Shown here: piece by piece, positions 17,124 through 19,909 of the stretch
Layout: each line of letters starts with the position of its first letter
Numbering within the stretch: position 1 is the first letter of the stretch
Source: Peptococcaceae bacterium
GTDB taxonomy: Bacteria > Bacillota > Dehalobacteriia > UBA4068 > JAAVYR01
Direction of reading: 5' to 3'
DNA length: 64,000 nt
NCBI GenBank assembly: GCA_022791255.1
Contig: JAAVYR010000004.1
Coordinates: forward strand, 25,992 to 89,991
Notes under the pieces: generated by a model
Told to the model about the DNA's origin: nothing
The model's input: the letters and a program-made list of their open reading frames with translations, nothing else
Database searches by the model: none
Position numbers and translations under genes: made by a program

Positions 17124-18533
17124 TTAGCTTAATCTTTTAGCCGTCAATGAAGCTTGGTTAACTGTTCCATCAGTGTTGTTTACTGTAGAGGTTAAGGCAA
17201 TATCAATAACATCACCAACCGCCAATGGCAAGATTACACTACCACCAAAAGACTCGCTTTCATTAGCTGTTAGCGTTAAAGCTTGAACAGTTCCAGGAAT
17301 ATTTGCGCCATTGTTCCGAATGGCCAGCGTAAGATTTCCAGCATTATCTACTTCTGCTAAGACATTATAAGTTAATTCATAGTTCCCGGCTTCCGTTATA
17401 GTAAGTGCATTCGGATTGGTTGCAGTATCAACATCTAATGTTGCCATAACAGTAGGCAACGTTACTTGTGTTGGGGTTCCAGTTGTAGTAGTAAATACCT
17501 GATCTACAGTAGAATAACGACCGCCATATGCATCTAGGCCTGCCCCGGTGGCACCTGTTGCACCTGTTGCACCGGTAGCACCTGTTGCACCGGTGGCACC
17601 TGTTGCACCATCAGCACCTGCAGCACCGGCAGCACCCGCAGGACCTGTAGGACCTGTAGGACCAGTTGGACCAGTAGCACCAGTCGCACCAGTCGCACCA
17701 GTGGCTCCGTCAGCGCCCGTTGCACCAGTGGGGCCAGTCGGTCCAGTTACTCCATCTGCACCGGTAGCACCGGCAGCTCCAGTAGCCCCCGTAGCACCTC
17801 GAGGAATAGAAAAGCTAAAAATAGCATTTTCGGTTGTACCATCATTGGTAACAGTAGCCGGCGTGCCAGGATCTCCTGTTGTCACTGTTCCAACAGCAAG
17901 GGTAGCAGCAGTACCATCCTCCCCTGTGGGTCCAGTAGGACCTGTCGGTCCAGTTGGCCCAGTTGGGCCTGTCGGACCAGTGAGTCCAGTTGCACCGGTT
18001 ACCCCAGGAAGTCCTTGTATCCCCGTAGCACCAGTGGCACCTGTAGGCCCTGTTACACCGTTAAGCCCAGTAGGACCTGTCGGTCCGGTAGGGCCGGTCA
18101 CACCTGTACCGGTAAGCCCGGTAGGCCCCGTGGCACCGGTAGCACCAGTCACCCCCGTAGCACCAGTAGCGCCAGTTGCACCTGTAGGACCGGTTGGTCC
18201 CGTGATACCTGTGGCACCTGTCACCCCAGGAAGTCCTTGGGCACCAGTAGCACCTGTAGGGCCGGCAGGGCCAGTAGCACCAGTGGCACCTCGCGCACCA
18301 GTGGCACCTGTTACCCCGGGAATACCCTGAGGTCCTTGGGCACCAACAGGGCCTTGTGGCCCCATAGGACCAACATCACCCTGGTCACCCTTAGGCCCAG
18401 GACAGCCCATTTCCCCTCTGCACCCACGAGGTCCCATCGGACCAGTAGGACCTGCAGGACCAGTAGGGCCTCTGTCTCCACCACAACCATTACAGCCGCA
18501 GCCACAATATCGATTATTCATCATGTGCATCAC
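17124..18533 (-). CDS. collagen-like triple-helix repeat protein, BclA-like (Cys-rich N-terminus, C1q-like C-terminal domain)
   Basis: About 300 aa of uninterrupted G-X-Y repeats with (GPT)n/(GAT)n runs like exosporium BclA. N-terminal CGCGCNGCGG. Non-repetitive ~140-aa β-rich C-terminal domain. Confidence 0.8.
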
Positions 18534-18559
18534 CTTTCTTTGCTATTCTTCGCCCCTTC

Positions 18560-19681
18560 TTACGCAATGCTGGGACCGATTTGGAAGATGGTCAGAGTCA
18601 CATTAGCACCACCGCTTCCATTATCGCTTAATGCAACAGTATAAGGAGATTTCACCCCTAAAAAGATTTGTTCCCCAGCTTGAAAAGGCGCTGTAAAGCT
18701 ACCACTAATAACAGTTTCATTGCTAAGGAAGGGAGCCCTCGCACCTGCCATTGCGGTCTTTGTGCCACTGCCCACTGAGACGATACCCATGGCAGCGTCT
18801 GCACTAGCACCACTACTAGGCATCACAGAATACATGATTACATATAATCCACCCTGCTGAAAAGTAATCGTTGTATTGTCTGGTTCCAGTGTAATACCAG
18901 TGTTGGTATTGGCTGTTAATGTAATGGGTGCATATGCCCCATCAGAGTCGATAGTTTGCGTTGCAAAAGATGTAAAGTTTGCTACTGATGGCGTCGGTAT
19001 CGTACCAGTGGCACCTGTAGCACCTGTTGCGCCCGTAGCACCGGTTGCGCCTGTAGCACCTGTAGCACCAGTGGCACCTGTTGCGCCCATAGGACCAGTA
19101 GCTCCTGGCAAACCTTGTGGACCTTGAGGACCTTGGGGACCTACCGGACCAGTAGCACCTTGCAGTCCGGTAGCCCCAGTGGCACCTGTAGCGCCTGGCG
19201 CACCTTGAGGTCCTTGGGGACCGATTGGTCCTACAGGACCAGCAGGGCCAGCTACCCCTTGGGGTCCAGTATTACCTCTTAATCCCTGGATACCAGGACA
19301 ACCTACATCACCTTTGGGACCAGGTTCACCTTGAGGTCCTTGAGGCCCAGTAGGACCGGCAGGCCCTTCTGCCCCAGGGCAGCCTCTAGGACCGATTGGC
19401 CCTTGATTACCCTGTGGGCCTTGGGGCCCCATGGGACCTTGGGGACCTATAGGACCAGTAGGCCCCACCTGTCCACCGCAAGAATTACAACCGCAATTAT
19501 GGCAACCACAAGTATCATCACAATCAGTATTTGTATCGCAGTCGCACCAATCATAATTGCGAGAATAGGCTGCATTGCTTACGGTATAGGAAACAGTGGC
19601 AGCAGCTGTTTCATTAGGATAGATTTTCCGAGCGCTGTTGGCATAAAAATCAGCACGAGGATCGCCTGCATAAAAACGCAT
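18560..19681 (-). CDS. collagen-like triple-helix repeat protein, BclA-like (second copy)
   Basis: G-X-Y repeats ([20 protein letters not shown]…), Cys-rich N-terminus ([25 protein letters not shown]) and a C-terminal globular domain. Start trimmed to ATG 19681, which has RBS aaggtaga. Lies 26 bp upstream of the other collagen gene, so probably one operon. Confidence 0.8.
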
Positions 19682-19909
19682 TCTACCTTGTTGAGTTGGA
19701 TATTCTTTCAATCTTTTCCCTCCAATCAAATTATTATCCGGAACGGGAAGATAAATAGAGATGAAAGAGAAATAGTACTAGTTTTCTTCATCAATGTATT
19801 ATATGAAAAGTTTGTCCCCAAGGTGCGAGGGGTTGCCCTGAAAAATAAGACAAATTTATCTGCTGCTAACAGCTGTCCACCCATTGTTGCCCATTTTGCC
19901 TCTTCTATA

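Follow-up and report, generated by a model that had tools for sequence, protein, structure and literature searches.

The usual view of sporulation intervening elements is that they are parasitic remnants of prophages, tolerated through their excision in the terminally differentiating mother cell. The elements skin (in sigK), SPbeta (spsM), vfbin (spoVFB) and gin (gerE) are each inserted in a mother-cell sporulation gene, and elements of the skin type carry a large serine recombinase at their edge and a small accessory open reading frame (ORF) in the position of the recombination directionality factor. Published elements have been described as prophage-like or, for gin, as lacking phage genes, and published sizes are 48 kb for skin and 28.6 kb for gin. 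Here we describe an insertion of the same kind within the gene cotJC, found in a 64-kb stretch of DNA (64,000 nucleotides of contig JAAVYR010000004.1, referred to below as the window) from a Peptococcaceae bacterium. At 4.7 kb the cotJC element is far smaller than the published ones and, unlike skin-type elements, it holds no phage genes; its sole cargo is a spore-envelope-type operon of two collagen-like genes, A and B, with a putative mother-cell-type promoter of its own. It appears to be a sporulation intervening element of a new form, minimal and non-phage, and we found no described intervening element with a spore-envelope-type operon as cargo in the literature. A skin-like element in cotJC of Laceyella sacchari was mentioned in passing by Galperin and colleagues (bioRxiv 10.1101/2022.02.25.481979), and beyond that sentence we found nothing in the literature on cotJC intervening elements or their recombinases.

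Several described collagen-like proteins resemble the products of genes A and B. BclA of Bacillus anthracis and B. cereus (PDB 1WCK) consists of an N-terminal segment, a threonine-rich Gly-X-Y stalk and a C1q/TNF-like trimerising domain of ~135 residues, a plan that proteins A and B share, and the C-terminal domains of A and B match the 1WCK structure with template-modelling (TM) scores of 0.71-0.79. BclA differs in having an exosporium leader (LIGPTLPPIPP-type) where A and B have a cysteine cluster; in addition, the stalk of protein B is broken by a 36-residue module, and genes A and B lie on a putatively excisable element. BclA1-3 of Clostridioides difficile are likewise clostridial spore-surface proteins with an N-terminal domain, a collagen-like region and a C-terminal domain, the likeness noted here being one of architecture; their genes, unlike A and B, lie on the chromosome outside any intervening element. 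The C. difficile bclA3 gene lies beside a glycosyltransferase gene, an arrangement also seen in a chromosomal relative of gene B described below (locus L081). Phage collagen tail fibres also combine collagen repeats with a jelly-roll knob, and the motif of the 36-residue insert is shared with phage minor-tail families; A and B differ from them in having neither a tail-attachment N-terminal domain nor a phage neighbourhood.

The nearest parallel comes from the B. cereus group, in which L-BclA and the candidate S-ENA ruffle protein AGE80398.1 are collagen-like tip fibrilla of endospore appendages (ENAs) (PMC11362473, PMC12357932). Expression of L-BclA is sporulation-specific, and a plasmid of the studied strain carries the ena3 cluster, l-bclA included (PMC11362473, PMC12357932). 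Like A and B, L-BclA has a collagen stalk and a BclA_C/C1q head, lacks a leader and bears an N-terminal cysteine motif, for which disulfide coupling has been proposed. It differs in that its motif is a CC doublet and its gene is co-transcribed with that of the pilus subunit Ena3A, whereas A and B have CxCxC clusters of 8 and 4 cysteines, respectively, and no Ena gene nearby. By their sequences, A and B appear to be new members of the broad BclA-like collagen family whose plan is closest to that of the leaderless, cysteine-bearing L-BclA; since they have no exosporium leader, they are BclA-like but fall outside the BclA family as strictly defined. The likeness to BclA proposed in a first-pass annotation of this DNA stands for architecture and fold and does not extend to the Bacillus leader.

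Results

The cotJC gene is split by a four-gene element

The split gene and the recombination genes of the element are laid out as follows.

14438-14465, plus strand: sigma-K-type motif AC-N17-CATATACTA, directly upstream of cotJA in the cotJABC operon
14529-14717, plus strand: cotJA (Pfam CotJA, E 3e-13)
14701-14964, plus strand: cotJB (Pfam CotJB, E 2e-27)
14980-15167, plus strand: cotJC 5' fragment, codons 1-62 plus 2 nt (Pfam Mn_catalase positions 1-64)
15168-19914: cotJC-intervening element, 4,747 bp, with direct GGTAC cores at both bounds
15230-16774, minus strand: large serine recombinase, 514 aa from GTG 16774 (raw ORF to 16822)
16767-16955, minus strand: small ORF of 62 codons, sharing 8 nt with the start of the recombinase gene
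19915-20302, plus strand: cotJC 3' fragment, third base of codon 63 to stop (Mn_catalase positions 61-198)

The element is inserted within the cotJABC operon, between the cotJC codons for DIGT and EE, and one GGTAC core is found at each junction (15163-15167 and 19910-19914). As read from the sequence, the 5' frame of cotJC enters the element past the junction and stops at 15192, whereas joining at the GGTAC core gives an intact cotJC frame, ...LLTDIGTEELAHLEM... The reconstructed attB site reads …GATATCGGTAC joined to AGAAGAACTAGCC…, and the reconstructed attP site …CTTCTATAGGTAC joined to CGTGTTCCTAAAATGG…; the dyad symmetry of the latter is marginal (13 of 22 pairs, equalled by 29 of 500 shuffles), and we make no claim about the crossover dinucleotide.

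The element carries four genes and nothing else, each of them on the minus strand: the recombinase gene, the 62-codon ORF, gene B and gene A. None of the four is a phage gene. The recombinase has the Pfam domains Resolvase, Recombinase and Zn_ribbon_recom and matches a PHROG integrase family (E 5e-121). The small ORF has no Pfam or PHROG match, but its homologues occur 200-400 bp upstream of the recombinase gene in 76 of 80 related loci and are conserved at 62-74 aa, with the motif QKSILLSLEKRKLLTHSQCERCLxELEKQY (in the window IQKALLISLYHEKLISGEVYQQCLLHLEEG; the copy in the sister element L001, introduced below, lies at 3898-4083). It is a candidate for a new recombination directionality factor or regulator. 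Upstream of it lies a block that may serve as its promoter:

16986-17024, minus strand: conserved non-coding block with CATAAAATA, a sigma-E/K-like -10, shared by the window and L001

The window also holds spoIIE, ftsH and tilS and is therefore part of a spore-former chromosome. Ten contigs with an identical CotJB were checked for an empty site, and the element was present in all seven informative ones, which are conspecific. A metagenome scan with one 17-mer across the left junction returned at least 120 loci, of which roughly one in three appeared to be a chance match; the matches listed included numerous cotJC genes of other taxa, both intact and split, and no empty cotJC site from this species. 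The element is predicted to excise in the mother cell and so to rejoin cotJC.

Genes A and B encode collagen-like proteins with N-terminal cysteine clusters

The first-pass annotation had described the cargo as two co-oriented collagen-like genes, and this is borne out: both are on the minus strand, bracketed by a sigma-K-type motif and a terminator.

18560-19711, minus strand: gene A, 383 aa from TTG 19711 (raw ORF 18560-19729)
17124-18524, minus strand: gene B, 466 aa from ATG 18524 (raw ORF 17124-18533)

The most likely start of gene A lies 6 nt after a GGAGGG ribosome-binding site, that of gene B is preceded by AAAGGTGA, and both lengths agree with gene calls made independently on a metagenome contig of 100% identity. 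The spacing of 26 bp reported at first holds for the raw ORFs; with the corrected starts, the true gap between A and B is therefore 35 nt. Residues of gene A are numbered below on the 389-aa ORF, and those of the gene B insert on the 469-aa ORF.

Protein A begins with ~55 cysteine-free residues, followed by a 23-residue cluster with 8 cysteines, an unbroken collagen stretch of 53 triplets (159 aa; GAT (14) and GPQ (11) are commonest) and a non-repetitive tail of 145 aa. In protein B the cluster CGCGCNGC, with 4 cysteines in 8 residues, stands almost at the start of the protein, and the collagen region of 94 triplets (282 aa) falls into three blocks of 44, 21 and 29, separated by a two-residue register shift and a 36-residue non-collagen insert; a tail of 137 aa follows. 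The cysteine-rich string CGCGCNGCGG was confirmed in the sequence, the clusters of both proteins are of the CxC type without a CC doublet, and both proteins have two extra cysteines within the first collagen triplets (GCR/GCP). The expected cysteine-rich N-termini are thus present in both, though that of protein A, at ~79 aa before the collagen, is not short. Uninterrupted tracts of 250-300 residues in each protein, as first described, were not found, the tract of A being shorter and that of B broken twice. The supposed dominance of GPT and GAT applies to the two genes together (GAT 42, GPT 23), both tracts being rich in these triplets, but the tract of gene A is led by GAT and GPQ.

Pfam Collagen matches the two proteins with E values of 6e-25 and 1e-39, and the collagen and cysteine features lie well outside what chance would produce. 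In the DNA, the repeat units agree imperfectly, with 68-83% matches for periods of 9, 18 and 27. No signal peptide, LPXTG motif or membrane segment or anchor was found in the sequence of A or B. We place high confidence in this anatomy of the operon and the element.

The insert in protein B is placed as follows:

17790-17900, minus strand: 36-residue beta-type module of gene B, residues ~210-245

It recurs, sometimes twice, in the clostridial BclA-like proteins P0032, P0037, P0039 and P0044.

The C-terminal domains are predicted to adopt a BclA/C1q-type fold

The C-terminal domains were modelled with AlphaFold2, using alignments of relatives, and compared with the PDB by Foldseek. Both models are all-beta and confident (predicted local distance difference test, pLDDT, 91.1 for B and 91.5 for A), in agreement with the ~140-aa, non-repetitive, β-rich domains first proposed. 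For the domain of B the top matches are BxpB/ExsFA (E 4e-10 to 1e-8) and BclA (~1e-7), followed by F-BclA and C1q-family heads; for that of A they are F-BclA (1.4e-7) and BclA (8.5e-7), with TM scores of 0.73-0.82, followed by TNF/C1q members. Both domains match BclA, F-BclA, BxpB and C1q with a Foldseek probability of 1.0 and TM scores of 0.7-0.8, at a sequence identity to BclA of 14-16%. The suggested BclA/C1q-type fold was thereby recovered, in a comparison that does not discriminate, since the tips of phage collagen tail fibres share the fold and match equally well; the fold alone is therefore no proof of a spore role. The models are best read as trimeric collagen-fibre heads that need not be spore-specific.

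The two domains show no relationship to each other by hhalign (probability 0.2%). The 24 closest relatives of the gene B domain carry precomputed PF18573 assignments. For the domain of A, a direct sequence search of PDB chains found nothing, and a profile search was swamped by collagen chains; an exhaustive search of 1.84 billion representative proteins gave only 20 relatives. Many full-length relatives of A share its plan of cysteine cluster, collagen, sometimes the 36-residue insert, and C-terminal domain. A homologue search with a query heavy in collagen repeat returned generic collagen-like proteins only and was uninformative.

Chromosomal relatives with a cysteine-rich N-terminus were found beside spoVT and a GT2-TPR glycosyltransferase gene (L081) and beside a UDP-sugar pyrophosphorylase gene (L082). 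A collection of 50,697 phage genomes held no match to either C-terminal domain, and IMG/VR held none to the gene B domain family.

The operon has a sigma-K-type motif and a strong terminator

A sigma-K-type promoter had been suggested for the interval 19682-19900, and a matching motif is present there; the operon ends at an intrinsic terminator.

19797-19824, minus strand: sigma-K-type motif ACCTTGGGGACAAACTTTTCATATAATA (AC-N17-CATATAATA), 85 nt upstream of the gene A start
17022-17064, minus strand: intrinsic terminator after gene B, 18-bp stem and U-run
56075-57154, plus strand: GT2 glycosyltransferase with a TPR-like C-terminal half (Pfam Glycos_transf_2), motif at 56006-56033

The motif AC-N17-CATAnnnTA occurs five times in the window, against 1.7 expected by chance; three copies are correctly oriented and directly upstream of cotJA, gene A and the GT2 glycosyltransferase gene, and the other two lie inside ORFs. 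No sigma-70-type site was found upstream of gene A. The terminator (-26 kcal/mol, z -5.2) was matched by none of 200 shuffles. Between the -35 element of the promoter and the first codon of gene A, over 155 bp, the window and L001 are ~97% identical, compared with 75% for coding DNA; the exact motif is absent upstream of the chromosomal relatives in L081 and L082. From these features it appears that the collagen operon is switched on in sporulation. The GT2 glycosyltransferase, which is 49% identical over its full length to the one beside the chromosomal BclA-like gene in L081, is possibly a glycosylating partner of the collagen proteins.

A sister element indicates that the split gene and its cargo are maintained

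A search of 185,579 species genomes for the recombinase found its best relative (65% identity) in L001, a metagenome-assembled genome of a Peptococcaceae from mouse gut. The element of L001 occupies the same cotJC codon, and its small ORF, gene B and gene A are ordered as in the window, from which we infer that the insertion predates the split of the two lineages. Nonsynonymous (dN) and synonymous (dS) divergence between the window and L001 is as follows.

cotJC 3' half: dN 0, dS 0.89, dN/dS 0 (100% amino-acid identity)
cotJC 5' half: dN 0.02, dS 1.6, dN/dS 0.012
Recombinase: dN 0.25, dS 3.6 (saturated), dN/dS 0.07
Gene A: dN 0.13, dS 1.43, dN/dS 0.09
Gene B, first 70 residues: dN 0.006, dS 0.9, dN/dS 0.007
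Gene B, C-terminal domain: dN 0.61, dS 2.7 (42% amino-acid identity)

The strong purifying selection on both halves suggests that the split cotJC is still needed, implying that it is rejoined. In the same way, the dN/dS values of the cargo, with the conservation of the promoter region, suggest that the cargo and its control region are under selection. With dS of 0.9-1.6 at dN of 0-0.02 in the split gene and low dN/dS in the cargo, both have been kept functional over a long divergence.

Gene B departs from this pattern at one end: its N-terminus is 98.6% identical between the two elements and its C-terminal domain 42% (17124-17537 in the window, 3362-3775 in L001). The domain in the window shares 70-80% identity with domains that unrelated chromosomal genes of other taxa encode (P0002-P0019), which, set against the 42% to L001, indicates a module swap and gives evidence of head-domain swapping among clostridial BclA-like genes. 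Gene B of L001 is also 75 aa shorter and lacks the 36-residue insert, and the two gene A products differ in length by 3 aa. Polymorphism in repeat length, anticipated by the first-pass annotation, is thus seen between species (94 and 78 triplets) and was absent among the near-identical contigs found.

Related recombinases split cotJC at the same residue with other cargo

For comparison we used 79 other loci holding related recombinases (43-46% identity), from Lachnospiraceae, Oscillospiraceae, Ruminococcaceae and Eubacteriales, with the isolates Lachnospiraceae COE1 and Yeguia hominis among the hosts. In most, a cotJC 5' fragment is present that is cut off at the same residue, between DIGT and EE, and mostly lies just past the recombinase gene. 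The 3' part of cotJC is found 3-10.7 kb away in 14 genome loci (within L002-L080), and complete elements span 3.0 to 10.7 kb; among the matches listed, four metagenome loci (L117, L164, L172 and L188), with a recombinase 57% identical, also have the 3' part. The recombinase belongs to a large and apparently undescribed cotJC-splitting family in gut Clostridia.

None of the 79 loci has a collagen-like ORF (at least 12 triplets) or a match to either C-terminal domain; their cargo, judged by eye from translated ORFs, is apparently of Fic, AbiE-like, MazF-like, ParA, AAA-ATPase and ABC-transporter types. The collagen operon is therefore specific to the lineage of the window and L001, and the claim that such cargo is unusual is upheld.

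A second split of cotJC, near codon 28-33, was noted in L003, L004, L019, L021, L048 and L060 (also in L215 and L217), with an insert of 3-8 kb carrying a distant serine recombinase (27-30% identity). As it occurs in the same genomes, one gene of ~190 codons can carry two independent intervening elements. On the IMG/VR contig L226 (4624-9866), a prophage module follows right past a cotJC fragment (residues 24-63); it encodes an amidase/lysin, a holin and a collagen-like tail protein of 243 aa that has neither a BclA_C domain nor a cysteine cluster. Real prophages thus also use cotJC, apparently at the second site, and cotJC appears to be a frequent serine-recombinase target across gut Clostridia.

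Pfam gave no match for three ORFs that flank the cotJ operon:

20580-21407, minus strand: cysteine-rich ORF (5.1%), which may encode an unrecognised coat or outer-layer protein
12382-12990, minus strand: ORF without Pfam match
13032-14219, minus strand: ORF without Pfam match

Discussion

Taken as a whole, the data are best explained by a spore-surface role of A and B as fibre proteins, a reading that we consider probable. The element would be a minimal, long-resident sporulation intervening element made up of a recombination module (the small ORF and the recombinase) and one cargo operon. Transcription of the operon would start in the mother cell at a sigma-K/E-type promoter and end at the strong terminator, and the proteins, which have no signal peptide or wall anchor, would be made in the mother-cell cytoplasm. 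The C1q/BclA-type jelly roll would trimerise each protein and nucleate a threonine-rich triple helix, giving stalks of ~45 nm for A and ~80 nm for B (at 0.28 nm per residue; PMC12357932). By analogy with the CC motif of L-BclA and with disulfide-linked ENA and exosporium lattices, the N-terminal cysteine cluster is proposed to fix the fibre by disulfides to a cysteine-rich outer spore layer or appendage. O-glycosylation is probable at the numerous Gly-X-Thr triplets and may be the work of the co-regulated GT2 enzyme. Spore-surface location, disulfide anchoring and glycosylation are all predictions from the design of the genes.

Several observations weigh against a spore-surface role. The host is uncultured. 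The motif consensus behind the promoter call is short and derived from Bacillus. No exosporium leader was found by NCBIfam, by Pfam or by eye (no LIGPTLPPIPP-like motif), and no Ena/DUF3992/DUF4183 or ExsY/CdeC-like partner was found among the element and window ORFs scanned. Pfam BclA_C scores fall under the cut-off of 38 bits, at 37.5 for the gene B domain alone and 26.4 (E 7e-6) for gene A. Predicted phage collagen-repeat proteins in the BFVD library match the gene B domain as well as the spore proteins do (E 1e-10, TM ~0.8); the same domain has a weak PHROG minor-tail match (E 2e-4), and the 36-residue module, which belongs to no Pfam family, has a stronger one (E 3e-8). A prophage with a collagen-like tail protein does lie inside cotJC elsewhere, in L226, and phage ancestry of the cargo is possible.

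A different place on the spore is conceivable, though we think it unlikely: A and B could form the tip fibrilla or anchor of an ENA-like pilus and not a nap, and their chains could co-assemble. F-ENA-type fibres exist in Clostridia; the best structural match of A is the F-ENA tip fibrillum F-BclA and that of B is the ExsFA/BxpB docking platform; and a cysteine N-terminus, collagen and a C1q domain without an exosporium leader make up the architecture of L-BclA. Yet there is no DUF3992 or DUF4183 subunit gene in the element or the flanking ORFs scanned, the motif is CxC and not the CC doublet, and the lack of any hhalign relationship between the two heads argues against a heterotrimer.

It is less probable still that A and B are what remains of a decayed cotJC prophage, as collagen-like tail-fibre or receptor-binding genes that hitch-hike with the recombination module and have no role in the spore. 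Intervening elements described so far usually derive from prophages, viral contigs in IMG/VR carry related recombinases, and L226 has a real prophage with lysin, holin and collagen-like tail protein in cotJC; phage collagen-fibre tips have the same fold, and PHROG tail-fibre families match the collagen repeats as well as the insert and, weakly, the head of B. However, no other phage gene is left in the element. Both collagen genes are intact, with purifying selection acting on them over a divergence of dS >1, and their promoter and leader are better conserved than coding DNA. Their N-termini are cysteine clusters and not tail-attachment domains, whereas the tail protein of L226 has neither cysteine cluster nor BclA_C. 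Neither head is found in the phage genome collections, and the closest relatives by sequence are chromosomal genes whose neighbours are spoVT and glycosyltransferase genes.

Collagen-like adhesins are common in Firmicutes, and A and B have sub-threshold NCBIfam matches to SclA, SclB and Lcl models, but that they are generic Scl/Lcl-like adhesins of vegetative cells, unrelated to sporulation, is very improbable: the matches are repeat-driven and far under cut-off (126 against 325 bits), the C-terminal domains are of BclA/C1q type and not Scl V-domains, gene A is preceded by a mother-cell-type motif and by no sigma-70-type promoter, and, with no secretion or anchoring signal (signal peptide, LPXTG or membrane anchor) in either protein, we rejected this explanation.

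A bolder extension of the spore-surface reading is that the element has become a domesticated cassette in which DNA excision is mechanistically coupled to the production of spore fibres. In the integrated state the cotJ promoter may read antisense through the recombinase, gene B and gene A; excision would restore cotJC and at the same time free the collagen operon from convergent transcription, and on the circle the operon would lie directly downstream of the small-ORF/recombinase unit. Full fibre expression would then occur only in mother cells with a rearranged chromosome, and through the swapped domain of gene B the element would serve to diversify the specificity of the spore surface. We regard this cassette as a doubtful prospect, and our confidence in any coupling between excision and expression is low.

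In the species studied, spore-surface fibres mediate adhesion, host interaction and transmission. If A and B do have a spore role, an intervening element supplies structural genes to the very developmental programme that it interrupts, and the element is a concrete system for asking whether intervening elements become domesticated. The two proteins point to a family of putatively cysteine-anchored BclA-like fibres in uncultured gut Clostridia. The recurrence of cotJC as a target of serine recombinases may be the more general result.

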